Shown here in pieces: positions 1,485 to 20,424 of a stretch of 64,000 nucleotides of DNA. Position 1 is the first letter of the stretch, and every line of letters begins with the position of its first letter. The notes under the pieces are model-generated. The model searched no databases, was not told where the DNA came from, and saw nothing but the letters and a program-made list of their open reading frames with translations. This DNA is from Alphaproteobacteria bacterium (lineage in GTDB: Bacteria; Pseudomonadota; Alphaproteobacteria; RF32; CAG-239). The translations under genes were made by a program, and so were the position numbers. The DNA is taken from assembly GCA_045602545.1 (NCBI GenBank), contig JAZSBR010000033.1:14645-78644 (forward strand), in the 5' to 3' direction.

Positions 1485-1506
1485 GCTGATTTTTGCCGTT
1501 ATTTAT

Positions 1507-2676: not shown

Positions 2677-2679
2677 CCC

Positions 2680-3657: not shown

Positions 3658-3736
3658 TTCTCTTCATTTAATTTTAATTTTCAGTTTTTATATTATTAGC
3701 ACACGGATATTTTTTTTAAAAGAAAAAGGATGAATT

Positions 3737-4198: not shown

Positions 4199-4273
4199 GA
4201 ATTGTTTAACCGAACTGTGCTAATATGCCCTCAAATTGATAATAACCGCAAGGTTATCTTAAGTGAGGAAACA

Positions 4274-4609: not shown

Positions 4610-4645
4610 AATTCTACCTATATAAACCTTTAGGAGTTGATTAAA

Positions 4646-5587
4646 ATGAACAAAGATTTGTATGAGGTATTAGGCTTAAAAAAGACGGCGAGTTCTGCGG
4701 AAATAAAATCCGCATACCGCAAGTTGGCGCGCAAATATCATCCGGACTTAAATAAAGATGATAAGACAGCCGCCGAAAAATTCAAGGAAATTTCCTCGGC
4801 TTATGATATTTTAGGCAATGAAGAAAAGCGCAAAAAATATGACAATAATGAAATTGACGCTGACGGAAAGCCAACCGGATTCGGTGCCGGATTTAACCCG
4901 AATGATTATGCTTCATACGGCTTTAACGGAGCAAATCCGTTCGGGGGCGGTTTTAAGAGTGGCAATTTTGACGGCGCGCAGGGATTTGATTTTTCTTCAA
5001 TTTTCGGAGAGGATATTTTCTCTTCATTTGCCGGCGGAAATGCCCGTGGCGGATTTTCGCGTTCAGCCCGCCCGCAAAAAGGCCAAGATGTGTCATATCG
5101 CTTAAAAGTGAACTTTCTTGACGCCGCAAACGGCGCCGAAAAAACCCTTAATTTAGGCGCAAAAAACATAAATGTAAAAATTCCTGCCGGCACAAAAGAC
5201 GGGCAGACTTTGCGCCTTAAAGGCTTGGGTGCAAGCAGTCCGAACGGCGGTGAAAACGGCGATGCTTTAATAACCGTTAATGTTGCCGAACATCCTTATT
5301 TCAAAAGTGATGAACTTAATGTTTTGCTTGACTTGCCGATTTCCTTAAAAGAAGCGATTATGGGTGCCAAAATCACGGTTCCGACCATCAGCGGCAAGGT
5401 TGCGGTCAAAATTCCTCCGCGCACATCGAGTGGCGAAAAATTGCGCCTGCGCGGTAAGGGCATCAAAACCAAATCAGCAACCGGCGATGAAATCATCAAT
5501 TTGCAAATTGTTTTGCCGAAAGACGGTTCCGCCGAGCTTGAAAAAATGGCGGAAAATCTTGATAATTATGCAGTCAGGAGTTTTTAA
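4646..5587 (+). CDS. cbpA: DnaJ-domain chaperone, CbpA-like (J domain plus DnaJ C-terminal domains, no zinc finger)
   Basis: J-domain [36 protein letters not shown] (HPD motif); Gly/Phe-rich linker; C-terminal DnaJ_C-like beta domains; ATG at 4646 follows an AGGAG RBS (track start 4637 is TTG). Confidence 0.75.
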
Positions 5588-6153
5588 TGCTGCTTGATGA
5601 CTTGAAAAAATTTGATTGGATTAACGAGCCGGAAAACGTGCGTTTTAATGATTTCGGAATGCTTGTGCGCGCCAAATATCGCACAGATTTTTGGAATTGT
5701 GCGCGCTATGATTTTCAAAAAAACGACGGGCATTTTTTCTTTTGCAAAGGCGAAGGCGATTTTTGTTGCGACATAAATTGGGAATTTGACGTTGCCAAAC
5801 AGTTTGACCAATGCGGAATTATGCTTCGTGCCGATGACGAAAATTGGTTTAAGGCTTCAATTATGTATGACAATCAAACCGAGCCGATGCTTGCCACCAG
5901 CTTAACAACGGCAGGTTTTTCCGATTTGGCAACCATCGCTTTGCCGACAGATACGCACCGCGTTTGGTATCGCATAAAGCGCCGCAAAGATTGCTATATT
6001 GCAAGTTATTCGCTTGATGGCGAAAATTTTTCGCAACTGCGCAAATTTTATCTGCTTAATGAACCGGAGCAACCTTTAATCGGCGCTTATATTTGCGCTC
6101 CTCAACGCGATGATTTCGAAGCCACCCTGCGCGGTATTGAAATCAGCGAATAA
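5587..6153 (+). CDS. DUF1349-like (concanavalin/glucanase-fold) hypothetical protein
   Basis: 188 aa; N-terminal WINEPENV...RT.F motif pattern recalled from DUF1349 proteins; weak. Confidence 0.35.
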   Translation: MLLDDLKKFDWINEPENVRFNDFGMLVRAKYRTDFWNCARYDFQKNDGHFFFCKGEGDFCCDINWEFDVAKQFDQCGIMLRADDENWFKASIMYDNQTEPMLATSLTTAGFSDLATIALPTDTHRVWYRIKRRKDCYIASYSLDGENFSQLRKFYLLNEPEQPLIGAYICAPQRDDFEATLRGIEISE

Positions 6154-6158
6154 GGATT

Positions 6159-7427
6159 TTATTTCTTAAACGTTATCGTCACCTCATTTGTGTTGTCATT
6201 TTTCAACACTTCCGCCGCCTCAGCCGGGGTATAGCGAATGCGGTTACACCATCCGCCCATATCTTTGCAAGATGAGCAACACTTGCGTTTGCTAACATCC
6301 GGCTCACGCACACAGCCAGCTCCGTTCCAAAAGTAATTACCGGAGGTACATTGCTCATAATTTGCCACAACCACATTACCGGCCAATTCCAATGTTTCTC
6401 TTGAATAATCTATGCCGTATTGCTCATATTCGTTAAATAGATTTTTAACGCGAGCGCATGACAGTTCATCTCCCAAACAAATAATCTGCATATTTTGAAT
6501 TGTCTTTTTATTAGTTCCCAAACTTCCAAGCTCTACTTCTTCTAGTGTATCAGGAACTATAATTGAGGGAGAAAAACCACCGGAACCAGCCCTAAAGGCA
6601 AACTCCCCGATTTTTTTCAGCGAATCGGATAGTTTTACGGTTGATATTGCGTTATTCCAAGCAAAGGCTCCTTCATTTATATCAGTTACCGTGTCACTCA
6701 TTTCAACAGCAGTTAACTGGTCACCTGAACGGCAAAAAGCGTATTTTCCGATTGTACTTAAGCCCTCAATTTTCACGGATTTAATTTTTTCTTTATATGC
6801 TTTCCATGGGGCAGTTGTGTATTGTGCATTTGTTTCACTATCTTTGGAGTAAGAATAATTATACATATTTCCACTTCCGGAAACGGATAATTTCCCGCTT
6901 ACTGTATCAAAGCTCCAATCGCAATTGTCACCGCACTTTTCGCAAGCAGTAATGCCATCTTCGCGCAATCCGTTTATGCAACTCACTTTTGTGCCTTCCG
7001 CCCTCGATTCGGCGGTGGTGATGAGCGTGAAAACAAGGGCAAACACCGGAATCGTCATTACGAGGAGCATTCTTTGAATGCGACGTGGTAATCTCATAAA
7101 ACAAGTGACGCTTGTAAATAAGGATTCTTCATTTGCATGAGTACCTTGCTCAGGGAGATAACCACGTCGGACTGAAGTCCTCCTCGTTATGACGTGCCTT
7201 AACAATTTTTCCATCACTTTGGCGGAGTTGCACAGCAACGATGTCAAAGTGCCAACCGCCGAAAGCGGTTTATTCGCACTGCCCTCACTCAACCGCTGAG
7301 TCTGTTTTATATCCGTACATATTGTCGCCGTCCCGCCGACGAGTGTTTCATACGAAACACTCTTGGAAAATTTATAGCAATCCTCGCCTGACTTTTGTGT
7401 TTGCTCTCTATTAAAAATATCATTCAT
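6159..7427 (-). CDS. secreted BspA-type LRR protein with conserved C-terminal domain (family member 2); N-terminal region carries a conserved pre-signal peptide and an in-frame palindromic insert
   Basis: ATG at 7427 with AAGGAAAGG RBS; alternative internal start MTIPVFALVFTLITTAESRA at 7058 (signal peptide shared with the 15165..16463 paralog); LRR_5 repeats; C-terminus CSSCKDMGGWCNRIRYTPAEAAEVLKNDNTNEVTITFKK. Confidence 0.65.
   Translation of the reverse strand: MNDIFNREQTQKSGEDCYKFSKSVSYETLVGGTATICTDIKQTQRLSEGSANKPLSAVGTLTSLLCNSAKVMEKLLRHVITRRTSVRRGYLPEQGTHANEESLFTSVTCFMRLPRRIQRMLLVMTIPVFALVFTLITTAESRAEGTKVSCINGLREDGITACEKCGDNCDWSFDTVSGKLSVSGSGNMYNYSYSKDSETNAQYTTAPWKAYKEKIKSVKIEGLSTIGKYAFCRSGDQLTAVEMSDTVTDINEGAFAWNNAISTVKLSDSLKKIGEFAFRAGSGGFSPSIIVPDTLEEVELGSLGTNKKTIQNMQIICLGDELSCARVKNLFNEYEQYGIDYSRETLELAGNVVVANYEQCTSGNYFWNGAGCVREPDVSKRKCCSSCKDMGGWCNRIRYTPAEAAEVLKNDNTNEVTITFKK
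7053..7194. repeat. palindromic (hairpin) insertion element inside the 5' coding region of the family gene; RPE- or MITE-like
   Basis: Terminal inverted repeats cgtcattacgaggag (7053-7067) and ctcctcgttatgacg (7180-7194); nested inverted repeat gcgacgtggtaatctc / gagataaccacgtcgg; the insert keeps the reading frame open. Confidence 0.5.
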
Positions 7428-7439
7428 TTTAACAGCCCT

Positions 7440-7680
7440 TTCCTTAAAAAAATTAAGCCACTGAGCATAAAAGAAAAACCTCCGAACGGAGGTCGGAAGT
7501 TGACAACTATGATACGATTAATAGTGTAGTATATTTGATAGTACTGTCTTATTCTACTACCTTCCGACCATAAAGTCAGAAGTACACATATCGTATCGAG
7601 GTTGTCACACCTCCGAGCCTTTTATGCTCGTTTAAAAGGTTAACAAAAAAATTTTGCTTTGTAAAGAAAAAAATCTTGCC
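7440..7680 (-). promoter_or_regulatory. Type B conserved structured 5' leader, copy 1 (promoter region plus about 200-nt structured RNA), upstream of the minus-strand family gene
   Basis: Shares with 16470..16745 and 29790..30000 the blocks tctttacaaagcaaaattttttt (promoter), gagcataaaaggctcRgaggt ... cttttatgctc terminal stem, and ggtcggaagg/cttccgacc; several internal stems. Confidence 0.55.
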
Positions 7681-7738
7681 TTTACGGCTTAATCTGCTAA
7701 TATCAGTAAAAAATCAACCCTTTTTACGGGCAAAAAAT

Positions 7739-8581
7739 ATGGATAAAACGCAAAAAAAACTTGGAATTATTGCCGGCGGAGGCACTCTGCCGCAAATTTT
7801 GATTAACCACTGCCTTGATACAAAACGTGAGTTCTTCGTTCTGGCGATTGAGGGAAATGCCGATAAGGCAATTTTTAATCCTTTAATCCCGCACAAATGG
7901 ATAAGAATTGGGCAAGCCGGCACCGGATTTAAGCTTATGCACGAGCAAAACGTTGAAGAAGTTGTGATGATCGGCACCATCAAGCGCCCTACTCTTTCCG
8001 ATTTGGTGCCGGATTTGCGAACAGCCGCGTTTTTTGCAAAAATAGGTCTTAAATCACTCGGAGATGACGGCATTTTGCGCGCTCTGATTAAGGAAATTGA
8101 ATCTGAAAATATGCGCGTTCTCGGCATTCATGAAGTTCTGCCAGAACTGCTGGTAAAAGAAGGCGTTTTAACCAAAGCAAAGCCTGATAAACAAGCTTTG
8201 GCTGATATCAATCGCGGTGTGGAAGTTGCGTTTGAACTCGGGCGCTTGGATGTGGGGCAATCAGTTATTGTGCAACAAGGCTTGGTGCTTGGCGTTGAGG
8301 GCATTGAAGGCACCGATGAGCTTATAAAACGTTGCGGGACATACAAGCGCAAAGGCTCAGGCGGAGTTCTGGTTAAACTGCGCAAACCGCAACAGGATAT
8401 GCGCATTGATTTACCGACCATCGGGGCAAAAACCATTGAACAGCTTCATGTTGCCGGCATGAAGGGACTTGCCATACACAGCGGAAACGCTCTCATTGTT
8501 AATGAGCCGGAAGTTATTGATTTGGCAAATAAATACGGCATTTTCATCAAGGGAATTGTGCCGACGGAGGCTGAAAAATGA
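7739..8581 (+). CDS. lpxI: UDP-2,3-diacylglucosamine hydrolase LpxI (DUF1009)
   Basis: MDKTQKKLGIIAGGGTLPQ... matches the LpxI N-terminus; 4-bp overlap with lpxB downstream; probable start ATG 7739 (track start 7676 lies in the intergenic leader). Confidence 0.75.
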   Translation: MDKTQKKLGIIAGGGTLPQILINHCLDTKREFFVLAIEGNADKAIFNPLIPHKWIRIGQAGTGFKLMHEQNVEEVVMIGTIKRPTLSDLVPDLRTAAFFAKIGLKSLGDDGILRALIKEIESENMRVLGIHEVLPELLVKEGVLTKAKPDKQALADINRGVEVAFELGRLDVGQSVIVQQGLVLGVEGIEGTDELIKRCGTYKRKGSGGVLVKLRKPQQDMRIDLPTIGAKTIEQLHVAGMKGLAIHSGNALIVNEPEVIDLANKYGIFIKGIVPTEAEK

Positions 8582-9729
8582 AATATTATCTGATTGCCGG
8601 TGAACCTTCCGGCGATGCATTGGGTTTCAAACTCATGCAAGCGTTAAAGGCCAAAGATAAAAAAGCCGAATTTGTCGGCATCGGCGGAGATTCCATGCAA
8701 TCTGCCGGCTTGAAATCGCTCTTTGATATCAGCGATTTGGCGATTATGGGTTTGGCTGAAGTAATTCCGAGCATTCCGCGCGTTTTGCGCCGTATCAGCG
8801 AAACCATTGAAGATATAAAAGCGCAAAATCCTGATGCCGTAATCAGCATAGACAGCTGGAGTTTTTGTGCGCGCATACACAAAAAATTGCGCAAACTAAA
8901 CCTCGGAATAAAGCAGATTCACTATGTTGCACCGCAAGTTTGGGCTTGGAAGAAAAAACGCGCCCGCACGATGTATAAATATATTGACCATTTGCTCACT
9001 CTATTCCCGCAAGAGCCGAAATACTTTACGCCCTACAATTTGCCGGCAACCTTTGTCGGCCATCCGGTGATTGAAAGTGAAATTGTCAACGGCGAAAAAA
9101 GTGATTTCAAAAAGCGCCACAAAATCCGTGAAAACTCAAAAATTATGCTGGTTCTCCCCGGTTCACGCCATAATGAGGTTGAGCGCCTGCTGCCCACATT
9201 TTTAGAGGTTGTGAAAAATGTTAAGGCAAAACATAAAGACTTTTCGTTTGTTGTTCCGACTGTCAGCACGGTGGCAAAAAAAGTCAAGGATATGGTAAAA
9301 GAATCCGGTCTGCCGATTATTGTGGTTGAGGGACAAAAAGAACGTCACGATGCCTTCAAAGAAGCCGAGGTTGCCATCGCCGCTTCGGGTACGGTGGCGC
9401 TGGAGCTGGCGATTGTTGACATTCCGCACATCATCGCTTATAAAGTGCCGAAACTTACCGAATGGATTGCGCGCCATTTCATTCATATTCAGTTTGTGAA
9501 TTTAACTAATATTCTGCTCGGACGCGAGGTTGTCCCTGAGCTTTTGCAAGATGATTGCAACCCGCAAAACATTGAACAATATGTTGAACAATTTATTGCA
9601 AAAAAAGACCTCTATAAGCACCAAATGGCAGGCTTTAAGGATGTGCGCAAGGTTCTGGGATTCGGCAAACAAACGCCAAGCCAAACGGCAGCCAAAACCA
9701 TTATTGAGGTAATCAAAAACAAAAAATGA
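8578..9729 (+). CDS. lpxB: lipid-A-disaccharide synthase LpxB
   Basis: 383 aa; MKYYLIAGEPSGDALG N-terminus and overall GT19 family sequence. Confidence 0.85.
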   Translation: MKYYLIAGEPSGDALGFKLMQALKAKDKKAEFVGIGGDSMQSAGLKSLFDISDLAIMGLAEVIPSIPRVLRRISETIEDIKAQNPDAVISIDSWSFCARIHKKLRKLNLGIKQIHYVAPQVWAWKKKRARTMYKYIDHLLTLFPQEPKYFTPYNLPATFVGHPVIESEIVNGEKSDFKKRHKIRENSKIMLVLPGSRHNEVERLLPTFLEVVKNVKAKHKDFSFVVPTVSTVAKKVKDMVKESGLPIIVVEGQKERHDAFKEAEVAIAASGTVALELAIVDIPHIIAYKVPKLTEWIARHFIHIQFVNLTNILLGREVVPELLQDDCNPQNIEQYVEQFIAKKDLYKHQMAGFKDVRKVLGFGKQTPSQTAAKTIIEVIKNKK

Positions 9730-11747
9730 TTCGCCGTTTTTTGCACAGCATTTACCTTAATTTCACGGAAGAGCAATCTCGCCATTTTGCGCTTGTGCCG
9801 ATTTTTTTCGCACTCGGAATCGGGCTTTATTTTTCTCTTTCTTTTGAACCGCAATATTGGGTTTGCCTTGTTGTTATTGAAGCTTTGCTACTGATTTTTT
9901 ATTTTGCCCGCCATAAAGAGGCGCTTCATTTACCTTTATTTGCTTTGTTTTTAATAACTTTAGGATTTGCCGATGCTCAGCTTCATACGCTTTATCAAAG
10001 TCGGCGCATTGAAAAAATCAGCGATGTTGCAACCTACATTTCCGGTCGGGTTATTGATATTTCGCAAAGCGCAAAAGGCAAAACGCGCTATACTTTAGAT
10101 AATGCTTTTGATTTTGAAAAACCGCTGAAGGGCAATTTTCGCCTTACTTCAATGGCAAAAAATAATGATTTTGCCGTCGGCGATTGTGTTGAAACGGCGG
10201 CAAAACTTCTCGAAGCATCGCCTATACCGCTCAAAAATTCTTTTGATTTGAACCGAAAATATTTTTTTGAAGGCTTGAGTGCAACCGGCTATACTTTGGG
10301 CGATACGTTTAAGATATCTTGCCCCGAAAACATAAAAAAATCTTCCGTTTTAACGGCAATAAATTCCTTTCGCCACAAAACCGCCGAACACATAAATTCC
10401 GTTCTTCCGATTGATGAAGCAGGAGTGATTGATGCCGTTTTAATCGGCGAAAAAAGCTATATTCCGCAGAATATTGTCGACAATTATCGCAACTCCGGAC
10501 TTGCGCATTTTTTGGCTGTTTCAGGTTTGCATTTAGGAACAATCGCCGGACTTGTGTTTTTTCTGGTGCGTTGGCTGGTTTCATTTTTTCCCAAAATTGT
10601 TTTGCGTTATGAAAGCAAAAAAATCGCCGCACTTTTTGCCATTCTTTTTGCTTTTATTTATCTGCTGATTTCCGGCATGGCAATTCCGGCGGAGCGCGCC
10701 TTTATTATGACCACAACCGTTTTAGTCGGCGTGATTTTTAATCGTCAGGCCATATCTTTGCGCATGGTAAGCTTTGCCGCTTTGATGGTGCTGATAATTT
10801 CGCCGTCGGCACTGGTTTCGGTAAGTTTTCAAATGTCGTTTGCCGCCGTCACGGCTTTAGTGGTTTTTTATGAAAAATTCGCCGCCAAAATTTCAGCTTG
10901 GAGTTATGACAAGGGCGTCATCACAAAGTTTTTATATTACCTTATCGGGGTGGTTATTTGTGATTTTGTGGCAAGTCTTGCAACCTCTCCGTTTGCGGTT
11001 TATCATTTTCAGCGCCTTGCGATATACACAAGCTTGGGCAATCTTTTAGCCGGTCCGTTGATTGCTTTCTGGCTGATGCCGACAATTTTGCTGTGCCTTG
11101 TATCATTGCCTTTCGGAGCGTTAATTTATCCGCTGAAATTATTGGGCTATGGCATTGCAATATTAAATCGCATAACCGCCTATGTTTCCGCTTTACCGGG
11201 GAGTGTTTTGTATGTTCATTCTTTAGATTTCAGCGGATTTATGTTGATTGTCTCAGGCGCAATTTGGCTGTGCTTATGGCAAAAGAATTGGCGTTATTTC
11301 GGGCTTGTTGCCATCATGGCAGGCTGTCTGACGATGTTTTTTAAGCCCGTTCCCGATGCAATCATCTCATTTAACGGAGAAGGCGTTGCTTTGCGCGCGC
11401 AAAACGGCGAGATGATTTTGGCTCCGCTCGCTAAAGCTGATAATTGGACCAAAACCATCTGGCAAGAAAATTTTGGCTTAAAAATTCCCGATAAAAAAGA
11501 AAAAAAATATTTTCAAAAAATCTTTACCGGCAAAGAAAATCCGCAAGATTTTATTGATATAAAATGTGATAAAAACAAAAATTGCTTGTATAAGAATGCG
11601 CTTAAATTGAATGCTGACGGCACCATCTTTTTACAAGATAAAATGATAGATAAAAAATTCGGCGCTTATATTTATTTTGATGGCGACAAAACATCTTTTG
11701 AACCGCTGTTATCTCCGACTTGCCGTCCGTGGCAAATTTGCAAATAA
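9726..11747 (+). CDS. comEC: ComEC/Rec2 family competence membrane protein
   Basis: 673 aa polytopic membrane protein; HFLAVSGLHLG competence-domain motif; start overlaps the lpxB stop. Confidence 0.7.
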   Translation: MIRRFLHSIYLNFTEEQSRHFALVPIFFALGIGLYFSLSFEPQYWVCLVVIEALLLIFYFARHKEALHLPLFALFLITLGFADAQLHTLYQSRRIEKISDVATYISGRVIDISQSAKGKTRYTLDNAFDFEKPLKGNFRLTSMAKNNDFAVGDCVETAAKLLEASPIPLKNSFDLNRKYFFEGLSATGYTLGDTFKISCPENIKKSSVLTAINSFRHKTAEHINSVLPIDEAGVIDAVLIGEKSYIPQNIVDNYRNSGLAHFLAVSGLHLGTIAGLVFFLVRWLVSFFPKIVLRYESKKIAALFAILFAFIYLLISGMAIPAERAFIMTTTVLVGVIFNRQAISLRMVSFAALMVLIISPSALVSVSFQMSFAAVTALVVFYEKFAAKISAWSYDKGVITKFLYYLIGVVICDFVASLATSPFAVYHFQRLAIYTSLGNLLAGPLIAFWLMPTILLCLVSLPFGALIYPLKLLGYGIAILNRITAYVSALPGSVLYVHSLDFSGFMLIVSGAIWLCLWQKNWRYFGLVAIMAGCLTMFFKPVPDAIISFNGEGVALRAQNGEMILAPLAKADNWTKTIWQENFGLKIPDKKEKKYFQKIFTGKENPQDFIDIKCDKNKNCLYKNALKLNADGTIFLQDKMIDKKFGAYIYFDGDKTSFEPLLSPTCRPWQICK

Positions 11748-11770
11748 AAACTATAAAATGTACTTTTTCT

Positions 11771-12077
11771 TTGACATCTGCTATTTTTTTTGCTAGTGTA
11801 ATATAAGAATGGCGGATACGCCGTTTTAAGAAACTTCGGTTTCGGGGCTGTAGCAGGCTCTTTGTCGATAGAGGTGCATTATTCAGTGTCCCTCTTGGAT
11901 GCTGTTTTTTTGTACCCAAAATCCCCGCATTGGTTGGGGAGATTATAGCGTATGTACAGGCTTTTTTAAAGCTAAAGGCTATAATAGTCATTACTATCGA
12001 CATGATTTGCTAACTCCCCGATCGCCTGCAATACCGGCGGTCTTTGAGTTTTAAAAGTTTTAAGAAAGGACAATGAT
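11771..12077 (+). promoter_or_regulatory. Type A conserved structured 5' leader, copy 2 (candidate promoter TTGACA-N17-TAGTGT at 11771-11799)
   Basis: Paralogous to 1546..1848; see copy 1. Confidence 0.55.
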
Positions 12078-12959
12078 ATGAAAAAGAAATTTAATAATGA
12101 ACACACGCCTAAATCAAGCGAGAATTGCGATAAATATTCCAAGAGTGTTTCGGTGGAAAAATTGTTGCAAATATCGCCTGTATTAAGGTTGGTAAAAGTT
12201 CTTGGTTTAGCGGCGGTTTTATCTTTAAATATAGTGAGCGAATCGCTGGCAGATTGCGAAAGACCAACCAATGGAATATGCAAAACACTTGGAGAAAAAG
12301 GCACTTGCGGCGAGGGTTGTTCTTATACTTATGATTCAGCTACGCAAACTGTTTACATAACCGCTACCGGTGATAATGCAAAAATTGCAGGAGCGGCTTT
12401 TCATAATTATTATTATGAAAATAATAGTATGCCGGCTCAAACTTTTATTATTAATGGTGCTATAAAAATCGGCAGTAATGCATTTAATTCACCCCAAAGA
12501 AAACTTATATCGGGAGCCGGAGGAGCATTGATTTTAACCGGAGTCAATCATGACGCATTCGGAAATGACACAACTTTATCAGGCACCATAATTATTCCGG
12601 AAGGAACAGAATTCGCTCCTCTTGCCTTTTACGGCGTAACTTTGGCAGATAATGCTAAAATATATTGCGGTGTAGAAGATTGCAAACAAAAAATGATTGA
12701 TTCTTGCAATGCTTGGGGACGTAATGAAAACGGAAATGTAACAAGTTGTCTTAATGCCGTGAACAATATGGGCAATAAATTACTTCCATATCCTGAAAAT
12801 TGCCTAAAGGTGGGAGCAATGGGTTGCACAAAGTGCAAAAATTCAAATTTCAAATTAAATGACGGCGAATGTGACAGACTGCGCTACACCCCTGCCGAGG
12901 CGGCTGAGGTTTTGCATAACGACAACACAAATTCGGTGACGATTACTTTCAAAAAATAA
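12078..12959 (+). CDS. secreted BspA-type LRR protein with conserved C-terminal domain (family member 3) and a conserved N-terminal pre-signal extension
   Basis: ATG 12078 with AAAGGA RBS; N-terminus MKKKFNNEHTPKSSENCDKYSKSVSVEKL matches the N-terminus of 6159..7427; signal-like VKVLGLAAVLSLNIVSESLA follows; C-terminus CTKCKNSNFKLNDGECDRLRYTPAEAAEVLHNDNTNSVTITFKK. Confidence 0.7.
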   Translation: MKKKFNNEHTPKSSENCDKYSKSVSVEKLLQISPVLRLVKVLGLAAVLSLNIVSESLADCERPTNGICKTLGEKGTCGEGCSYTYDSATQTVYITATGDNAKIAGAAFHNYYYENNSMPAQTFIINGAIKIGSNAFNSPQRKLISGAGGALILTGVNHDAFGNDTTLSGTIIIPEGTEFAPLAFYGVTLADNAKIYCGVEDCKQKMIDSCNAWGRNENGNVTSCLNAVNNMGNKLLPYPENCLKVGAMGCTKCKNSNFKLNDGECDRLRYTPAEAAEVLHNDNTNSVTITFKK

Positions 12960-12974
12960 TGCTCTTGAATTTTA

Positions 12975-13010
12975 TAAAAGCCCATCATCAGATGGGCTTT
13001 ACTTTTTTCA
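12975..13010. terminator. bidirectional intrinsic terminator hairpin (aaagcccatcatcagatgggcttt + T-run)
   Basis: Perfect 10-bp stem between convergent genes 12078..12959 (+) and 13026..13679 (-). Confidence 0.5.
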
Positions 13011-13025
13011 TCATAAACATAGTTT

Positions 13026-13679
13026 TTAATTAAACAAATCCCAGCGTCCGTGCTTAATGCCTTCAGCCTCTTGCTTTTTGACTTCTTCTTCAAATTTTTG
13101 TTGTTCTTCGGCCTTCTTTTTCTCTTCTTCCATTTGTTTGTTATCAAACTCAATAATTTTCTTTTCACGCTCAACTTGTTGCTGGACATTTCCGGCCAAA
13201 ACATCATATTTATCGCGATAGTTCTTTTGCTCTTTGCGCAATTCTTCAAAAACAGCCAACTGCTCGGCGTTAAGCAAACCCTTAAACTTTTCCAAACTCT
13301 GTTGTTCCAGTTCACGCGATTGGTCCCTAAGCATATAAATTGATTTCAAGAGAGATTCGCGCTTCAATCTGTCTTCTTCGCTGAATTTTTTAGCCTGATC
13401 AAGCTGATCCAAGCTCAAATCCATACGCTGGGTAAAAAAGCTGAGTGAATAGTTATTATCGGCAATTTCTTGTTTTGCTTTTGCTTCCGGAGTTAAGAAA
13501 ACTTCATTTTGCGGTTCTTGAACTTCATTTTCATTGTCAGTATTTTTTGTTTCAATCACAACAACTTCCTTTTGCTCTTCAACAACAGGCGCTGTTTGAT
13601 TTTGTTCGGCAACTTGTGCCGAGGCGTTTGCCATAATCACCAATGATAAAGCTACTGTCCACAAAGCAATATTTTTCAT
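13026..13679 (-). CDS. secreted coiled-coil protein, possibly LTXXQ/Spy-like periplasmic protein
   Basis: 217 aa; signal peptide MKNIALWTVALSLVIMANASA; Glu/Lys-rich helical repeats. Confidence 0.45.
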   Translation of the reverse strand: MKNIALWTVALSLVIMANASAQVAEQNQTAPVVEEQKEVVVIETKNTDNENEVQEPQNEVFLTPEAKAKQEIADNNYSLSFFTQRMDLSLDQLDQAKKFSEEDRLKRESLLKSIYMLRDQSRELEQQSLEKFKGLLNAEQLAVFEELRKEQKNYRDKYDVLAGNVQQQVEREKKIIEFDNKQMEEEKKKAEEQQKFEEEVKKQEAEGIKHGRWDLFN

Positions 13680-13752
13680 TAAAAATCTCCTGTAAAATAA
13701 CCTTTTGACCGAATTTTATACTTTAAAATCCTAAATTTCAACCATTTTATGT

Positions 13753-14151
13753 TTAATAGACGCGCATTTTTTTGCGGCTCGGTTTATCTTCGCCTTTATG
13801 CTCGTTATGCTGTTTTTTGAGTTGGTAGCGATACATATCAAACTTCACTTTTTGTTTTTCCGATAAAATATTTCTGATTTGTTCATCATTTTCTTCCGCC
13901 AAAGCCGCCATTTCATGATGAATGGTGTCAAGTTCCATCAAAAGAATGTTCATTTTTTCCTGATTTTGATTTCTGATATTTTTCACCTGCTCACTTTGAA
14001 AAGCCGTCAGCTTAACCTTTTTTTCCCAATCATGATTATAAAGCGACGGATATTTATCTTCCAAAGACTTTGCTTGCGCGCAAGAAAGCACCGCAAAAAA
14101 AGCAAATACAAATGCGAAAAATTTACTTAAATTCATCTTATACCCTTTCAA
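13753..14151 (-). CDS. periplasmic LTXXQ-motif protein (Spy/CpxP-like)
   Basis: 132 aa; signal peptide; LTAFQSEQVKNIRNQ... LTXXQ motif. Confidence 0.45.
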   Translation of the reverse strand: MKGYKMNLSKFFAFVFAFFAVLSCAQAKSLEDKYPSLYNHDWEKKVKLTAFQSEQVKNIRNQNQEKMNILLMELDTIHHEMAALAEENDEQIRNILSEKQKVKFDMYRYQLKKQHNEHKGEDKPSRKKMRVY

Positions 14152-14249
14152 AAAAACAAGTGCATTATACTGCCCAAAGCTTAAAATTTAAATAAAATAT
14201 TGCATAAATTTTCCGTTCCTTTTATAATGCGAGCCTGAAAGGAATTAAA

Positions 14250-15035
14250 ATGCGTTTTTTATATTGCGGAGATGTGGTTGCGCGCCCGGGACGTGAAGTT
14301 GTTTATAAAAATATGGCGCGCCTAAAAGAAGAATATAAACTTGATGTGATGATAGTTAATGTTGAAAATGCCGCACACGGTTTCGGCATAACAAGCGGAA
14401 TTGCGCGCGAATTTTTGGAAAAAGGCGCTGATGTTCTGGTTACCGGTAATCATTTTTTGAGCCAGAAAGATATTGCAAAATTTTTAGATGAGTGCAAGGT
14501 AATTATCAGGCCGGCGAATATTCCGCTCGGCAATGTCGGACGCGGATTTTGTGAATTTGAACTTGCCGACGGGCGCAAAATTGTGGTGATACAGGTTTTG
14601 GGGCGCTTATATATGGAAGCCGTTGATTGTCCGGTGCAAGCGGTTGATAATATTTTGAAAAATTATCATATGGGGAAGAATTGCTCGGCAATTTTGGTTG
14701 ATATTCATGCCGAAGCAACTTCGGAAAAACTTTCGCTCGGTTATTATCTTGACGGCAAAGTGTCTTGCGTTGCCGGAACTCATACGCATGTTCCGACAGC
14801 CGATGCCCGAATTTTGCCGCAAAAAACCGCTTATATAACCGATGTCGGCATGTGCGGAGATTATAATTCGATTTTGGGTTTTGAAACAGAAGCGCCGATA
14901 AATCGCCTGCGCCGTCATTACAGTGATGACCGTTTGACGCCGGCAAAGGGCAATGGTACGCTTTATGGAATTATTGTTGAAACGGATGATTCCACCGGCT
15001 TGGCAAAATCAATCACGCAAATAAAGTGCGACTGA
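14250..15035 (+). CDS. ymdB: YmdB-family metallophosphoesterase (2',3'-cyclic-nucleotide phosphodiesterase-like)
   Basis: MRFLYCGDVVARPGREVV...VNVENAAHGFGIT closely parallels the B. subtilis YmdB N-terminus (MRILFIGDVVGSPGR...INGENAAHGKG). Confidence 0.7.
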   Translation: MRFLYCGDVVARPGREVVYKNMARLKEEYKLDVMIVNVENAAHGFGITSGIAREFLEKGADVLVTGNHFLSQKDIAKFLDECKVIIRPANIPLGNVGRGFCEFELADGRKIVVIQVLGRLYMEAVDCPVQAVDNILKNYHMGKNCSAILVDIHAEATSEKLSLGYYLDGKVSCVAGTHTHVPTADARILPQKTAYITDVGMCGDYNSILGFETEAPINRLRRHYSDDRLTPAKGNGTLYGIIVETDDSTGLAKSITQIKCD

Positions 15036-15087
15036 TTATATTTGTCCTTTAAGGCAAAATCGATTGCAATAAAATATAGGTTAATTA

Positions 15088-15122
15088 CCCCAATGTTTCA
15101 CGTGAAACATTGGGGTAAGTGC
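15088..15122. terminator. perfect palindromic hairpin (ccccaatgtttcacgtgaaacattgggg), bidirectional terminator between convergent genes
   Basis: 12-bp perfect stem with 4-nt loop between ymdB (+) and the family gene (-). Confidence 0.5.
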
Positions 15123-15164
15123 TTGATTTTTCACAATATTATTGTCATTGTCATAAGATTTTTC

Positions 15165-16463
15165 TTATTTTTTGAAGGTTATCGTCACCTCGTTTGTGTT
15201 GTCATCTTTCAGCACCTCCGCCGCCTCGGCAGGAGTATAAATTTTGCGCAAGCACCAACCGTCATCTTCAAGCTTAAAACTGGCACTTTTGCATTTTGTG
15301 CATTTAAGATTAGCTTCCAGTTTTTCACAACCGTCAGGATAAACACTGAATTTTTTGGAAAGACTATTAAGACTCTGAAAGCAGGCTTCATTATTACTAC
15401 TTTCTTCGCAACCTTTCTTTGCCATATCATAACATGCTTTGGCACCGGAGGCACAATAGATTTTGCCGGTTATATTACTTACATTTACAGCAAAGTATTT
15501 AATACTATCAACAGAATCGGGAATAATAATATTTCCATCTATATTTGAACTTCCCAAAACCCAACCAGGCATCGTTTGCATATTTTCCGATATTATCACA
15601 TCTCCTTTGATATTTGCCCTTTCTAAAGAAGTAACCAATGGATTATTTAAATAAACATCACCATTTAAGGTTACACGATTGTTGCCATAAGTAGAATAAC
15701 TTCCAATATTATTAAATACAAATTTCCCGTTTGCGTTCAAAATTTGCGCTCCGGAATTGGCAAACGCATAATTTCCGATATTTTCAAAATCGTTATCTAA
15801 GACAATGTTTTGCAAGGGAATGACCTTATTTTGGGCGTCTTTAACCTGATTATCAGCGTAATAATATGGTGAAAATGCGCCATCGCGAATCGAGGCAGAC
15901 TTGGATATATCAGTTTTATATATATGCAAAACCTGTTGTCCGTTTTCATTAATAACTCTGTATGAACAATTGTCTCCGCAGGAATTGTTACCATTTGCAT
16001 CGGATAGTTTTTCAATGCAAGTGACTGTATAACCATGTCCTTCCTTGCAAACGGGTGTTTCTTCATCTGCTCGCGATTCGCCGGTGGTGATGAGGGTGAA
16101 AATGAGGGCAAGCGCCGGAATCGTCATTCTGAGTTGAGTTTTAGCGAAACGAAGAATCCACGGATTTAATATGAAGCGGCGTTTGTGTGCCTTACGGCAC
16201 GACGCCGGAGCGGAGATTCCTTGAGCGCCTGACGCACCGCGCAGGCGCAGGAATGACAGTACCTTTTCTGTCATCTTGAGCCTCGAGACGTTAGGCGAGC
16301 GGGCGTAAAGATCTCTTTTTGCAGAAACGCGGTATGCTTTTTGCTCCATATTTTTAACACAATCTCTACACTTGCAACATGAGATCTTGACGGGGATTTC
16401 GCTTGCGCTCAACCCCTCAAGATGACGGCAGATTATTTTTTCATTATTCTTAATTTCAAACAT
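15165..16463 (-). CDS. secreted BspA-type LRR protein with conserved C-terminal domain (family member 4); 5' region carries an in-frame GC-rich palindromic insert
   Basis: ATG 16463 with AAAGGA RBS; alternative internal start MTIPALALIFTLITTGESRA at 16127; LRR_5 repeats; C-terminus CTKCKSASFKLEDDGWCLRKIYTPAEAAEVLKDDNTNEVTITFKK. Confidence 0.65.
   Translation of the reverse strand: MFEIKNNEKIICRHLEGLSASEIPVKISCCKCRDCVKNMEQKAYRVSAKRDLYARSPNVSRLKMTEKVLSFLRLRGASGAQGISAPASCRKAHKRRFILNPWILRFAKTQLRMTIPALALIFTLITTGESRADEETPVCKEGHGYTVTCIEKLSDANGNNSCGDNCSYRVINENGQQVLHIYKTDISKSASIRDGAFSPYYYADNQVKDAQNKVIPLQNIVLDNDFENIGNYAFANSGAQILNANGKFVFNNIGSYSTYGNNRVTLNGDVYLNNPLVTSLERANIKGDVIISENMQTMPGWVLGSSNIDGNIIIPDSVDSIKYFAVNVSNITGKIYCASGAKACYDMAKKGCEESSNNEACFQSLNSLSKKFSVYPDGCEKLEANLKCTKCKSASFKLEDDGWCLRKIYTPAEAAEVLKDDNTNEVTITFKK
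16121..16437. repeat. GC-rich palindromic insertion element (RPE- or MITE-like) within the 5' coding region of the family gene
   Basis: Local GC far above flanks (gccttacggcacgacgccggagcggag...gcgcaggcgcagg); imperfect terminal inverted repeats cgtcattctgag (16122-) and ctcaagatgacgg (-16437); internal hairpins such as tgacagtaccttttctgtca; same relative position and TIR core (cgtcatt) as the 7053..7194 element. Confidence 0.45.
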
Positions 16464-16469
16464 TTGAAC

Positions 16470-16745
16470 ATTCCTTTTCTTAAAAAATTATACCACTTAA
16501 GCATAAAAGAAAATCGCCCAAAAAGGCGACTGGAAGCAGAAAACTATACAGATTAGATAGTGTGATTTATTCGCAAACCGAAGGGTTTCTTATTTCATCA
16601 CCTTCCAGCCATACGAATATGACTGAAAATAAAACTATCCCTACAAAAGGACAAATCTGTCTGAGGTTTTCTGACCTCCGAGCCTTTTATGCTCAATTAA
16701 AATGCTAGCAAAAAAATTTTGCTTTGTAAAGAGAAAAGTTAGAAA
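16470..16745 (-). promoter_or_regulatory. Type B conserved structured 5' leader, copy 2, with sigma70-like promoter TTTACA-N17-TAGCAT (complement 16702..16730)
   Basis: Paralogous to 7440..7680 and 29790..30000; terminal stem agcataaaag...cttttatgct. Confidence 0.55.
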
Positions 16746-16774
16746 AACAAATTTCAAATTAAAAAACAGTAGCG

Positions 16775-18124
16775 CTAATTTTCATCTGCCAAATCGGCTT
16801 TTATGCGCTGTCTTAAATCTTCAATTTTTAGACTGAGCTGTTTGTTCGGATTGCTTTGATGGGCATAAAAAAGCTGCTGCTTCGCCCCCTGAATATTGCC
16901 CAATCCGTAATTATATTCCGCCGCCGCATAATATGAATAAGCGCTGTCATCCGCCATCGCATATGCGCGTGAAAGCATTTGCCACCCGCTCAAACTCGGA
17001 CTTTTGTGTTGCTCCTGATTAAGCAGATTTATAACTTCCGACAATTCATCCTTATTCGGATTTGCCTCCAGCACCGACTGCGCCAAAGAAAGCTTTATCA
17101 ATCCGGAATTCGGCAAAAGTTTCAATGCCTGACGATATGCCGAAACGCTTTCTTTTGTCTTGCCGGTTTCAAACAAAAATTGCCCTTTTAGCTCATGAAA
17201 AAAAGGATTATTCGGCTGATTTTTTATCAAACCGTCAATTGTTTGCATGGCACGCGCCATATCGGCTTCTCTGAAATACAAAATTGCGTGCGCATATTGC
17301 GCTTCAGTTGAATTTGCTGATTTAGGATATAATCGCCAAGCTTTTGATTTATCACTCAAAAAGGCGATTATTTTTGCTTTTATGAGCTTTAATTTACCGT
17401 CTAACGGACTTTGTGCTGAAAATTTATTGCTCTTTGCCACGCTTTCAAAATGGCTTATGCGCTCGTTCGTCATCGGGTGAGTGGCAAAATATTCATTTTC
17501 TTCCATTCCGCTCAAAGCATAGCGGCGCTTGATTTTTTTCATAAATCTTTTTAAGCCCTCGGCAGATTGCTTGGTTGCACTCAAGAGTTTTACGGCGCTT
17601 TCATCGGCGCTTCGCTCTTCCTCCACCTGATGATGAAGCATGCTGTGCAAAGCCGAAGTTTGAGTTCCCAAAATCACCGCCATTGCCGCATCACCTCGCC
17701 CACTGCCGATAGCAGCCGCGCCGGCCGCCAACATTGAGCCCATCATAGCATATTGCATCTTCTTGATTTTGAGCTTTTGGCGAACAATATGCCCACCCAA
17801 AATATGTCCGGTTTCGTGCGCCAAAACTCCGGCAAGTTCATTGGTGTTATCAACTTCGGTTAATGTTCCCGTATTGATAAAAAGATAGTTGCCGTCACTG
17901 ACAAAAGCATTCAGCGAATTGTCATTAACAATTAAGATTTTATTTTCATCAAAAGGCAATCCCGCGGCCTTAAACAACGGTTGCACAACTTTTGAGAGAT
18001 AATCCGAAGTTTCTGCATCGCTGATTAAGGCAAGTTCATCAGCACAAGCGCATGGCGCCGATAAAAGCGCCGTGCTTATGCTTAAAAATATTCCGAAAAT
18101 CAGCCGATAAGCTTTTTCCACCAA
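16775..18124 (-). CDS. M48-family Zn metalloprotease with C-terminal TPR repeats (BepA/YfgC-like)
   Basis: 449 aa; signal peptide; HETGHILGGH (HExxH) motif; TPR-like helical C-terminal half. Confidence 0.7.
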   Translation of the reverse strand: MVEKAYRLIFGIFLSISTALLSAPCACADELALISDAETSDYLSKVVQPLFKAAGLPFDENKILIVNDNSLNAFVSDGNYLFINTGTLTEVDNTNELAGVLAHETGHILGGHIVRQKLKIKKMQYAMMGSMLAAGAAAIGSGRGDAAMAVILGTQTSALHSMLHHQVEEERSADESAVKLLSATKQSAEGLKRFMKKIKRRYALSGMEENEYFATHPMTNERISHFESVAKSNKFSAQSPLDGKLKLIKAKIIAFLSDKSKAWRLYPKSANSTEAQYAHAILYFREADMARAMQTIDGLIKNQPNNPFFHELKGQFLFETGKTKESVSAYRQALKLLPNSGLIKLSLAQSVLEANPNKDELSEVINLLNQEQHKSPSLSGWQMLSRAYAMADDSAYSYYAAAEYNYGLGNIQGAKQQLFYAHQSNPNKQLSLKIEDLRQRIKADLADEN

Positions 18125-20424
18125 GATTTTTTCTCCGGCTTAGGCTCTGGTTCTGTTGTGACCGGAGCCTCATTTCTGTGTTCACGGCGAAAACCGTTTT
18201 TGAAATGTCTGTTTCTTCTGTTTTTGCGGAAATAGTTATTGCGCTCGTCTTTAACATTGCCTTCATCTTGCGAATCGTAGTCATCAGTTTCATCCGGCTC
18301 ATCTTCATCAACATTATCGGCTTCATAACAAGTTGTGGCAACATCTTTTGCATTAACTTTTTTCTGAACATTTTTTTCTTTTGCGATTTTGAAATCCGAA
18401 ACATCTTTAATGCTCATATCGCCTGAAACAACAATACTTACGCCATACACTTCTTCCAAAGCCGCCAAATTGCGACGTTTTTGATTGAGTAAATAAGCCG
18501 CTGTTTCCGTCGGCGCACTGACGCTGATTTTGCAATTTTTGTTGCGAACACACTCGCCTTCCAAAGCACGCAAAACAAGCGTTGCACCTGATTCAATCGT
18601 ACGAATTACGCCATGCCCGTGGCAATACGGACAAACTTCATAATTGCTTTCAACAAAAGAAGAGTGCATTCTCTGGCGCGAAATTTCCAACAGTCCGAAA
18701 ATACTCATTTTAGCAACCTGAATGCGCGCTCTGTCGCCCTTTAAGGCTTCTTTCATTTTCTTTTCAACGGCAACATTGTTTTGCGGTTCATACATATCAA
18801 TAAAGTCAACAACCACAAGACCTGCCAAATCACGCATTTTCAGCTGTTTGGCAATTTCTTCCGCTGCTTCCAAATTTGTTTTCAAAGCGGTTTCTTCAAT
18901 GTCTTTTTCCTTTGTGGCGCGACCGGAGTTTACATCAATTGAAACAAGAGCTTCGGTCGGATTTATCACTAAATAACCGCCTGATGCCAGCTGAACAATC
19001 GGATTGTGTAATTTATCAAGCTGTGCCTCAATTTGAAAACGTTGAAATACCGGAACTTCGCCCGCTTTACGACACTTAATGTGCTTTAAGTTGTGCGGTG
19101 ACAAAACTTTAACAAACTCGCGCGCGGTTTTATAGGCTTCATCGCCGTCAATAATCACCTCGGAAATATCCTTGGTATACATATCACGCAACGCGCGCTT
19201 AATTAAGTTTCCTTCTTCATAGACCATTGCCGGCGGATTGTTGCGCAGTGCCGCATAACGAATGGCGTTCCAAGTGCGAATCAAATAGTTATAATCGCGC
19301 ACAATATCTGATTTTGTTTTATCTTCACCAGCGGTACGCACAATTAAAGACATATCATCAACAATCGGCAACTCACGCAAAATGCCTTTCAAGCGACGAC
19401 GGTCATTTGAACTGGTGATTTTGCGCGAAACACCACCGCTTTTAATGCGATTCGGCATCAAGACGCAATATCTTCCCGCCAAGGAAACATATGTTGTGCA
19501 AGCCGCACCTTTATTTCCGCGCTCTTCTTTTACTATCTGAACAAGCAAAACCTGCCCTTCTTTAATAACATCTTGAATCACGCTGCGATGATACAATTTT
19601 CTGGCTCTTAATAACTTGCGCTGAGCATCAAACGCGTGGTCATAAATTGAGGTGGCGTTTTCCATTGCCTCATCGTCTTCGTCATCGTCATCAACATCAA
19701 CCAAGTCTTCCAAAGCATCATCATCAATGCCGGTGGCATCGGCCATGGTTGTTGTTTTCTTTTTCTTTGAGGCATAAGGACGGCGACGGCGATATTTAAC
19801 TTTTTTAGCGCCGGATTCGCTCTGCTCTTGTTCAGCAACTTGTTCTTGACCTTCTTCCTGCGCCGGAATTTCTTCCTCGTCAACAGCATTGTTTTCGCTT
19901 TTCTCAGGCGGATTATTTTCCTGATTTTCCTCACTTATAACAACTGCTTCAATCTCTTCTTGTTCAGCATCAAATTCTTCCGGAAAAGCATTTTCAACCG
20001 GTTCAAGCTGAGAATCTTCAATTTGCGAAGTTTGCTCCGCCTCTAAACGACGCGCTGCTTCTTTAGCCTCTTTTTCGGCACGATAGCGCGCTTTTTGCTC
20101 TTCACGTTCTTTAATGCGATTGATTTTATTTTGGATTATTTCATTAACTTCGGCATCAACTTGCGCCAGAACTTCATCGGAAACATGATAATAATCCGGA
20201 TGAATTTCATTAAAAGCCAAAAAACCGTGTTTATTTCCGCCATAATCCACAAATGCCGCCTGCAATGACGGTTCAATTCTGATAACTTTGGCGAGATAAA
20301 TATTTCCTTTGATTTGCTTTCTGGAAGTGGATTCAAACTCCACATCTTCAACCTTATTTCCATCAACGATAACAACTCTGGTTTCTTCCGGTTGCGTATC
20401 ATCAATAAGCATTCTTTTTGTCAT
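18100..20424 (-). CDS. rne: ribonuclease E
   Basis: N-terminus MTKRMLIDDTQPEETRVVIVDGNKVEDVEFES...NIYLAKVIRIEPSLQAAFVDYG is typical of the RNase E/G S1 catalytic domain; acidic and Arg-rich C-terminal scaffold; probable start ATG 20424 (track 20493 extends into the UTR). Confidence 0.8.
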   Translation of the reverse strand: MTKRMLIDDTQPEETRVVIVDGNKVEDVEFESTSRKQIKGNIYLAKVIRIEPSLQAAFVDYGGNKHGFLAFNEIHPDYYHVSDEVLAQVDAEVNEIIQNKINRIKEREEQKARYRAEKEAKEAARRLEAEQTSQIEDSQLEPVENAFPEEFDAEQEEIEAVVISEENQENNPPEKSENNAVDEEEIPAQEEGQEQVAEQEQSESGAKKVKYRRRRPYASKKKKTTTMADATGIDDDALEDLVDVDDDDEDDEAMENATSIYDHAFDAQRKLLRARKLYHRSVIQDVIKEGQVLLVQIVKEERGNKGAACTTYVSLAGRYCVLMPNRIKSGGVSRKITSSNDRRRLKGILRELPIVDDMSLIVRTAGEDKTKSDIVRDYNYLIRTWNAIRYAALRNNPPAMVYEEGNLIKRALRDMYTKDISEVIIDGDEAYKTAREFVKVLSPHNLKHIKCRKAGEVPVFQRFQIEAQLDKLHNPIVQLASGGYLVINPTEALVSIDVNSGRATKEKDIEETALKTNLEAAEEIAKQLKMRDLAGLVVVDFIDMYEPQNNVAVEKKMKEALKGDRARIQVAKMSIFGLLEISRQRMHSSFVESNYEVCPYCHGHGVIRTIESGATLVLRALEGECVRNKNCKISVSAPTETAAYLLNQKRRNLAALEEVYGVSIVVSGDMSIKDVSDFKIAKEKNVQKKVNAKDVATTCYEADNVDEDEPDETDDYDSQDEGNVKDERNNYFRKNRRNRHFKNGFRREHRNEAPVTTEPEPKPEKKSWWKKLIG

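Follow-up and report, generated by a model that had tools for sequence, protein, structure and literature searches.

Within the 64-kb window (i.e., the whole stretch of DNA analysed here), a gene for a BspA-type leucine-rich repeat (LRR) surface protein carries a GC-rich insert in its 5' part. We read this insert, at a probability of about 0.62, as a two-unit mosaic array of hairpin repeats that keeps the frame and separates the n-region of the signal peptide from its h-region. The refined limits of the insert are 16122-16427 on the minus strand, which corresponds to 306 bp or exactly 102 codons, and the stretch is made of two adjoining palindromic units, A and B (Table 1). The units are discrete and bounded by hairpins, they keep the reading frame open, and no copy in the DNA and proteins searched lies outside the 5' ends of this one gene family. 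When compared with related loci (L001-L019) and related proteins (P0001 onward), the units are absent from more distant orthologues, vary between strains of about 94% identity and are far better conserved than their host genes. Their exchange is independent of the host gene.

Anatomy of the palindromic units

A preliminary description of this DNA had reported a strikingly raised GC content with multiple nested inverted repeats at 16121-16437. With 49.5% GC compared to a window mean of 40.8% (z = 1.95), the region is clearly above its surroundings and only 2.1% of 317-bp windows reach its value, but the word 'strikingly' is somewhat strong. Resolved by part, the core of unit B has 55-59% GC, the gene body 37.8% and the upstream leader 33%. 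Most of the inverted repeats could be verified as well. That is, the pair GTCATCTTGAG / CTCAAGATGAC is perfect (11/11; 16270-16280 and 16416-16426), a 12-nt pair (CGTCATTCTGAG / CTCAAGATGACG, 83%) joins 16122-16133 to 16416-16427, and an inner 20-nt pair containing GAGATCT is 85% complementary. In contrast, 'tgacagtaccttttctgtca' was rejected as a separate hairpin: it is the A/B junction, and its palindrome arises because unit A finishes with ATGAC and unit B directly follows with GTCAT. Perfect inverted repeats of at least 11 nt with a spacing of 80-200 nt occur seven times in the window compared to 2.35 times in shuffles, and the terminal repeat of unit A is one of the seven.

The arms of unit A are hairpins at 16381-16427 and 16269-16315, to which the inner GAGATCT stem is added, with 135 bp between the 11-bp repeats. 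The unit folds as a long stem-loop; a consensus structure was obtained with its homologue in L001, which is 82% identical with indels. Unit B holds a strong GC-rich hairpin (B1, 16213-16258), an inner stem around a further hairpin (B2) and a right arm at 16122-16160; its last five bases, ATGAC, encode the 'MT' of MTIP. Copies of unit B in L011 and L015 are 91-93% identical to it, and L015 also holds a variant B' in which six B1 base pairs are changed on both sides with all pairing kept.

Two further units are found in the paralogue 7427..6159. Unit C, the element to whose family the preliminary description had assigned the insert, has arms at 7053-7095 and 7155-7194 and the best fold among A, B and C (z = -6.9; the unit folds span z = -3.9 to -6.9). 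Unit D was found by comparison, i.e., it is absent from the paralogue 12078, which shares the flanks ccaagagtgtttcg / tggaaaaattgtt. It represents another hairpin type that resembles none of A, B and C. The motif at its end, CGCCAAAGTGA, is found again as a 'spacer' ahead of unit B in L011, L015 and L017.

The insert and unit C belong to one superfamily, in line with the preliminary description. The CGTCAT terminus is indeed common to both, and units A and C share identical CGTCAT...ATGACG termini as well as the arm organisation described below. Their similarity is distant and significant (global alignment, z = 4.1; 0/300 shuffles as good). Units A and B share an arm (z = 4.6), while B has only the termini in common with C. 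All sizes are within the generic range of transposable elements of the miniature inverted-repeat type (MITEs; about 100-400 bp), likewise with terminal repeats and without a transposase gene; unit B varies between 141 and 147 bp and has a closing stem of 7 bp.

The suggestion that the insert is a composite of two insertions is borne out, since unit A stands alone in L001 and unit B stands without A, next to other neighbours, in L011 and L015. The RNA of 16100-16500 folds better than shuffled sequences (z = -3.0), and this fold prompted a nested reading, namely one large element with outer arms 16122-16160 and 16390-16427 and an internal insert. We rejected it because A and B are found separately elsewhere. 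An assembly artefact was discarded too, as the units recur across independent ENA, Logan and NCBI assemblies.

The arms follow a common grammar. In units A, B and C, as well as in units F and E of L011 (see below), an arm consists of (N)GTC, a stem that starts with AT, an interior of 15-30 nt, a complementary stem that ends with AT, and a C, to which TC is usually added. This grammar is matched eight times in the window compared to 1.5 times in shuffles, where 6/8 matches are the arms of A, B and C. For L015 and L017, we find five matches each, while shuffles provide 0.2-0.4. Mismatches between the terminal repeats of a unit are offset within the arms, i.e., ATAAC/GTTAT vs. ATTAC/GTAAT in unit C, ATTCC/GGAAT vs. 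ATTCT/AGAAT in unit B, and ATCGCT/AGCGAT vs. ATCCCT/AGGGAT in F/E. Such compensation within the arms speaks for every arm being an independent hairpin unit.

Host gene and open reading frame

The open reading frame (ORF) runs from 16463 to 15165 on the minus strand (432 residues), and the genes of this region all have this orientation. Its start context, TTTTTAAGAAAAGGA-N8-ATG, is homologous in uninterrupted paralogues and in L001, L015 and L017. Unit A begins 12 codons after this ATG, and the peptide encoded up to there (MFEIKNNEKIIC) matches the n-regions of ordinary signal peptides of the family, e.g., MKNLNKNFFALSMVLCLGISTQAWG in the paralogue starting at 38967. Directly after unit B follows the h/c-region IPALALIFTLITTGESRA, which aligns with the signal peptides of orthologues without extension; cleavage after ESRA is predicted from the -3/-1 rule. 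The ATG of 'MTIP' (16127-16125) lies within the terminal ATGAC of unit B. We found no ribosome-binding site (RBS) ahead of 16127, and L002 has ATA at this position with the frame still open. Given the family RBS at 16463, the lack of a Shine-Dalgarno sequence at 16127 and the ATA in L002, the true start is probably 16463.

It follows that the insert, which had been placed upstream of MTIPALALIF, is not upstream of the gene. It does lie in the 5' part, as had also been stated, namely inside the ORF and within the n-region of the signal peptide. The reported 112 open codons ahead of MTIPALALIF are present. For each of the units A, B and C, only 1/6 frames is free of stops, and this is the frame used by the gene. 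The same holds for all 8/8 extensions for which DNA is available: the gene frame contains no stop, whereas the other five frames contain 1-13 each. In shuffles of the extensions, an open frame arises by chance with a frequency of 0.014 or less. In A-type copies of other genes, the left half is read in a different frame and is still open, which points to selection that keeps the frame open without favouring any one peptide.

Within the AlphaFold model, residues 1-100 show predicted local distance difference test (pLDDT) values of 29-44 and no secondary structure, followed by a helix (115-128) and an LRR solenoid with pLDDT >90 from residue 134 on. The C-terminal domain is common to all 113 homologues. 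This module (15165-15300, minus strand) covers about 45-55 residues of the form C..C..C...[YW]TPAEAAEVL.DDNTNEVTITFKK and is joined to differing bodies, i.e., LRR_5, MORN_2 (P0058) and RHS- or YwqK-annotated ones (P0074, P0083). It has no match in Pfam and may be a sorting or secretion tag. P0187, a metagenomic protein of 110 residues, joins the end of unit C and a part of unit B to a signal peptide and to the C-terminal module, and it lacks an LRR body. Recombination between the conserved gene ends may have produced it.

Table 1. Coordinates of the units, the parts of the host gene and the structured leaders; positions refer to the window unless a related locus is named
Feature	Position	Strand	Details
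Unit A	16269..16427	-	159 bp, 53 codons, 47% GC; perfect 11-bp terminal inverted repeat
Unit B	16122..16268	-	147 bp, 49 codons, 55% GC; closing stem GTCATTC/GAATGAC
Unit C	7053..7194	-	142 bp in paralogue 7427..6159; 15-bp terminal inverted repeat CGTCATWACGAGGAG (14/15)
Unit D	7215..7352	-	in-frame palindromic insert in paralogue 7427..6159; arms CACTTTG..CAAAGTG
Promoter-like site	16702..16730	-	TTTACA-17-TAGCAT with TG extension; TTTACA-N17-TAnnnT likewise ahead of other cassettes
Type-1 structured 5' leader	16500..16700	-	context of the insert, not part of it; terminator-like hairpin 16512-16531
Native RBS, start and 12 codons	16428..16478	-	RBS AAAAGGAA at 16471-16478, ATG at 16463, n-region MFEIKNNEKIIC
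Native h- and c-regions of the signal peptide	16068..16121	-	IPALALIFTLITTGESRA; predicted signal-peptidase site after ESRA
Mature BspA-type LRR surface protein	15165..16067	-	Pfam LRR_5; conserved C-terminal domain ..YTPAEAAEVLKDDNTNEVTITFKK
Type-1 leader copies	16461-16705 (-), 7425-7640 (-), 29830-30075 (+); L012; L013 1-185; L015 11114-11255		
Type-2 leader copies	11815-12079 (+), 1590-1852 (+); L015 4262-4541; L017 9733-10003; L018 8515-8755		

Distribution of the units and of their host genes

Among the 113 homologues, the orthologues P0008, P0010, P0011 and P0013-16 (50-55% identity) start directly with a plain N-terminal signal peptide and have nothing at the site of the insert. That is, the stretch is an insert, as had been proposed, and orthologues do not conserve it as coding sequence. 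Other homologues have extensions built from a small repertoire of recurrent units, each of which starts with GTCAT (read as VIL.., CH/RH.. or ..SF.., depending on the frame) and ends with ATGAC (..L[KR]MT or ..RDD).

Turnover is seen in L011, whose syntenic backbone is about 94% identical to the window and whose orthologous gene likewise follows ymdB at this site. This orthologue keeps unit B (92% identical) and has units F/E in place of unit A. Unit C shows how sharply the units are delimited. A copy in L017 (10279-10420), located inside an unrelated MORN-like gene of 638 residues, is 98.6% identical, and a copy in L002 is 95% identical. The homology stops exactly at CGTCAT upstream, whereas downstream, the identity of the signal-peptide DNA falls to about 76-80%. 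In the same vein, the peptides encoded by units are 60-90% identical across proteins whose bodies are about 30% identical.

Within the 64-kb window and about 125 kb of related loci, about 190 kb together, all unit copies are located at the 5' ends of this gene family; a count over about 147 kb of related DNA likewise gave none elsewhere. No copy was found in the 40 kb of L018/L019 from a distant relative. At 8760-8830 of L018 (FLNY01 contig), the n-region of a family gene contains an E-like sequence, ..LLEFFRILRKNKD.., which resembles unit E (SLEKFFKKNFRDD / LEFFRILRKNRDD); its occurrence in a distant relative suggests that some units may be ancient. An exhaustive phmmer search of the A+B peptide against 1.84 billion representative proteins gave 21 matches, and every real one is an N-terminus from this family. 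When the unit peptides were used in a word-index protein search, 33 matches were obtained that all open with N-terminal peptides of the family; many of them are ended by contig ends and some have up to six tandem units.

Searches on the nucleotide level provided no additional copies. That is, a 21-mer of unit B had 5 matches among genome contigs, all of which are chance matches of 21-27 nt in unrelated GC-rich genomes, while the B2 pattern had none in metagenome contigs and a 24-mer of unit C none in viral contigs. A protein-family scan of metagenome contigs returned only two loci, from a distant relative without the units. The unit-encoded peptides match no Pfam or NCBIfam model at E-values up to 10, and Rfam has no match for the whole window at gathering thresholds nor for the leader and insert regions at E-value thresholds. 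In the literature, the peptide or DNA strings of the units matched only unrelated primers.

The host genes themselves are presence/absence cassettes composed of a promoter-like site, a leader and a gene. There are four LRR cassettes in the window (1542-2671, 6161-7645, 11751-12975 and 15034-16790). In L010, which is 93-95% identical to window positions 429-18799, all four are absent and replaced by 0-19 bp; the respective junctions are clean, lie in A/T runs and show no target duplication. In L011, three of the four are absent and only the fourth is present. Judging from these comparisons, surface-protein genes appear to be gained and lost between housekeeping genes at a high rate. The window's gene content (LpxI, LpxB, an ELM1-like protein, YhdP and AmiC with an AMIN domain) indicates a Gram-negative host, for which an assignment to the Alphaproteobacteria would be tentative.

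Two types of structured leaders precede the genes of the cassettes. The type-1 leader has a closing stem GAGCATAAAAGGCTC...CTTTTATGCTC and a terminator-like hairpin just ahead of the RBS, 9/61 pairs are compensatory among 3 sequences, and no Rfam family matches. Its layout resembles a riboswitch or an attenuator. It precedes two LRR genes and one pilin-like gene, which suggests that several surface structures are regulated together. The latter gene, at 29982-30737 (plus strand), has a prepilin-type N-terminal methylation motif, MIEMLGVLAIIGVLS. The type-2 leader is a multi-stem RNA of about 200 nt that lies after a promoter-like site (TTTACA-N17-TAnnnT) and ahead of the RBS in family genes. 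Here, 20/64 predicted pairs are compensatory among only 4 sequences. It is conserved at 71-73% in a distant relative, is not matched by any Rfam family and is a candidate for a new cis-regulatory RNA.

Known hairpin systems and competing explanations

Close parallels are found in Neisseria. The arm grammar corresponds to that of the NTS (CGTCATTCCCGCGMAVGCGGGAATCYRG), which contains dRS3 (ATTCCC-N8-GGGAAT), and, more widely, to that of the Ssn-related motifs (SRM). Hairpins of both NTS and SRM begin with CGTCAT and end with ATC, and small GIY-YIG nucleases bind and cut the SRM hairpins as single-stranded DNA (PMC11893778). Neisseria intergenic mosaic elements (NIMEs) are mosaic arrays in which dRS3 hairpins flank RS units of 50-150 bp; they adjoin genes of variable surface antigens, vary by strain and have been proposed to promote recombination, and, according to the same 2007 paper, such arrays had not been observed outside Neisseria (PMC1797815). 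In the present arrays, the hairpins likewise have CGTCAT as head and ATC(YNB) as tail, and the B arm reads ATTCC...GGAAT compared to the ATTCCC-N8-GGGAAT of dRS3. As in NIMEs, units of about 50-150 bp between inverted hairpins come in many families and are combined into mosaics of up to six, which are tied to variable surface-protein genes and differ in syntenic position between close strains (window vs. L011). All arms of A, B, C, F and E show the looser SRM traits, i.e., a head HGTCWY, a hairpin of 20-50 nt, a C after the palindrome and a tail RNCYNB.

The differences are as clear. The arms measure 39-47 nt and have structured interiors, compared to 20-28 nt for NIME/SRM hairpins. The published SRM pattern, HGTCWYN(0-2)YYVSBRHN(0-5)WNVSBRGN(0-2)RNCYNB, has 0 matches on both strands of the window; NTS has none at up to 3 mismatches, and the dRS3 pattern is not above chance with no match in the units. 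NIMEs are intergenic while the present arrays are intragenic and in frame, the copies are located at the 5' end of one family instead of at hundreds of sites, and the host is an uncultured Gram-negative metagenome bacterium of about 41% GC.

In-frame insertion is paralleled by the Rickettsia palindromic elements (RPEs), which the available accounts of Ogata et al. 2000 (PMC2229807, PMC10969869) describe as in-frame palindromes in many unrelated housekeeping genes, RNA genes and intergenic regions. As far as these accounts go, RPEs resemble our units in being palindromes of 105-150 bp with terminal repeats of about 12 bp, long stem-loops and no clear target-site duplication, and in adding, in frame, a peptide from one open frame that the host protein tolerates. 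Unlike RPEs, all copies found here are in the signal-peptide n-region of one paralogous family and often form tandem arrays of 2-6; the encoded peptides showed no similarity to RPEs with Pfam/NCBIfam models at E-values up to 10. For YPAL/ERIC-type enterobacterial MITEs, fusion to ORFs with in-frame translation has been described, with some forming part of a signal peptide (Delihas 2007, as presented in PMC2229807). In that account, the fusions are single, sporadic and dispersed, in contrast to the family-specific arrays between n- and h-regions seen here. The mosaic of few hairpin motif types, the inverted doublets that form a larger hairpin and the tandem amplification at one locus are also features of REP/BIME/REPIN systems and of the BOX element. 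REP-type elements carry a GTAG head, are extragenic at hundreds of loci and are mobilised by RAYT transposases, and the modules of the pneumococcal BOX are intergenic. We see no RAYT gene here. In summary, the array works like NIME/SRM arrays and RPEs and is not a demonstrated member of either.

Under our reading, the array would be transcribed and translated from ATG 16463 as a basic, disordered extension of the n-region of about 100 residues, and this extension would be removed with the signal peptide after ESRA, leaving the mature protein unchanged. Since cleavage would leave the mature protein as it is, inserts could be tolerated at this site, i.e., the site would act as a safe harbour. 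Units may spread via a process that acts on hairpins of single-stranded DNA, as proposed for dRS3/NTS in Neisseria, with an Ssn-type GIY-YIG nuclease or a Piv/IS110-type recombinase as the putative enzyme, or via homologous recombination through the shared arms. Random cut-and-paste transposition would not be the route. It is speculative whether the array is a recombination hot spot that aids the exchange of strain-variable surface-protein cassettes, and equally speculative whether mRNA hairpins or the long n-region tune expression or export.

Several observations weigh against this reading. As isolated single strands, 4/6 arms are unstable (z about 0) and only B1 (z = -5.3) and the left arm of A (z = -2.8) are clearly stable, so the relevant structure may be the pairing between arms in a MITE-like form. 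The arm interiors (15-30 nt) exceed the loops of 3-8 nt, the published SRM pattern and the canonical dRS3 and NTS are missing as stated above, and no GIY-YIG or recombinase gene was found in the window and the related loci. Both translation from 16463 and the cleavage of the signal peptide are steps that we infer. The count of stop-free extensions (8/8) is biased, as most related loci were found via proteins called from these ORFs, although the two window genes were not chosen in this way. Finally, dispersed intergenic copies may be present elsewhere in the genome; with a single open frame, such copies would be under-detected by protein searches.

An alternative is that the units are ordinary MITEs, mobilised in trans by an insertion sequence (IS) transposase and dispersed in the genome, where only in-frame, stop-free inserts within a dispensable, cleaved segment survive. 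Such survivorship would account for the single open frame, and the terminal inverted repeats of 11-15 bp, the sizes of 140-160 bp, the stem-loop folds (z = -3.9 to -6.9), the sharp unit edges and the 98.6% identical copy of unit C in an unrelated gene are all as expected for MITEs. Nevertheless, inspection of the junctions in the window, L001, L002, L011, L015 and L017 revealed no target-site duplication, and neither the window nor the related loci contain a transposase or recombinase gene. Short intergenic spacers exist in the 64-kb window and the about 125 kb of related loci, yet no copy lies outside the 5' ends of the family, and among 1.84 billion representatives the peptides occur in no other protein family. 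Furthermore, recombination is indicated by the exchange of arms from one unit type to another. We thus consider MITEs unlikely, if still deserving attention, and the insertion element of the preliminary description is not supported in its classical, transposase-driven sense, as neither a target-site duplication nor a dispersed copy was seen in the DNA analysed.

An untranslated element is considerably less probable. In this scenario, the units would form regulatory or stabilising RNA hairpins of the 5' untranslated region (UTR), and the protein would start at 16127 with MTIPALALIF. The fold of the 16100-16500 RNA reported above is in line with this, each unit ends with ATGAC in frame with the downstream ORF, and some short ORFs (P0159, P0163, P0167) stop just after a unit, such that the unit may sit in an upstream ORF or a UTR. 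However, it is 16463 and not 16127 that has the family RBS together with the N-terminal peptide, while 16127 has no Shine-Dalgarno sequence; the ATA of L002 leaves the frame open; MTIPALALIF has no basic n-region; and an untranslated region would not have to be free of stops only in the gene frame, as is the case for 8/8 extensions. Even less probable are invertible segments for phase variation, where a recombinase would flip a unit such that the flipped form brings in a stop and switches the surface protein off. Unit A has perfect 11-bp repeats around 135 bp, its inverted form does have a stop in the gene frame, and the host is a variable surface-protein family. But the same unit was never seen in two orientations at a single site, the swapped arms of P0077 surround a forward core and thus do not amount to a simple inversion, the vicinity lacks a recombinase gene, and the closing repeat of unit B measures only 7 bp. 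There is hardly any room left for a genuine conserved protein segment (a pro-peptide or domain) whose amino-acid composition causes the GC shift. An open frame and the recurrence of the peptides in many proteins would fit, but the segment is absent from orthologues, genes differ in the frame in which they read the same DNA, changes are compensatory in the DNA hairpins, the peptide is predicted to be disordered (pLDDT about 30) and no Pfam or NCBIfam model matches, i.e., the present data already contradict this explanation. We also set aside an integron attC site: by eye, unit A has a single GCCTAAC/GTTAGGC, and there is no integrase among the Pfam matches.

A bolder version of the favoured hairpin-array reading is a dedicated diversification system. 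Here, an Ssn-like nuclease or a Piv-like recombinase would recognise the GTCAT arms as single-stranded DNA and drive the exchange of units and of whole promoter-leader-gene cassettes among paralogues and strains, and the placement in the cleaved signal peptide would be a selected safe harbour with an additional effect on export. We regard this as rather unlikely; if true, it would be an intragenic, non-neisserial counterpart of NIME-mediated antigenic variation.

On the practical side, gene callers will provide spurious N-terminal 'domains' of 60-180 residues or short false ORFs for such genes, which affects annotation. Concerning the biology, in-frame palindromes are known mainly from Rickettsia and hairpin arrays at antigen genes mainly from Neisseria, and both are joined here. 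The grammar of Ssn/NTS-type hairpins would be extended to longer arms. Arrays of 1-6 units sit in the part of the protein that would be discarded after export and turn over between strains of about 94% identity, which makes them a natural example of a safe harbour for selfish or recombinogenic DNA within genes. With this family, the question of whether hairpins favour the exchange of surface-protein genes becomes tractable.

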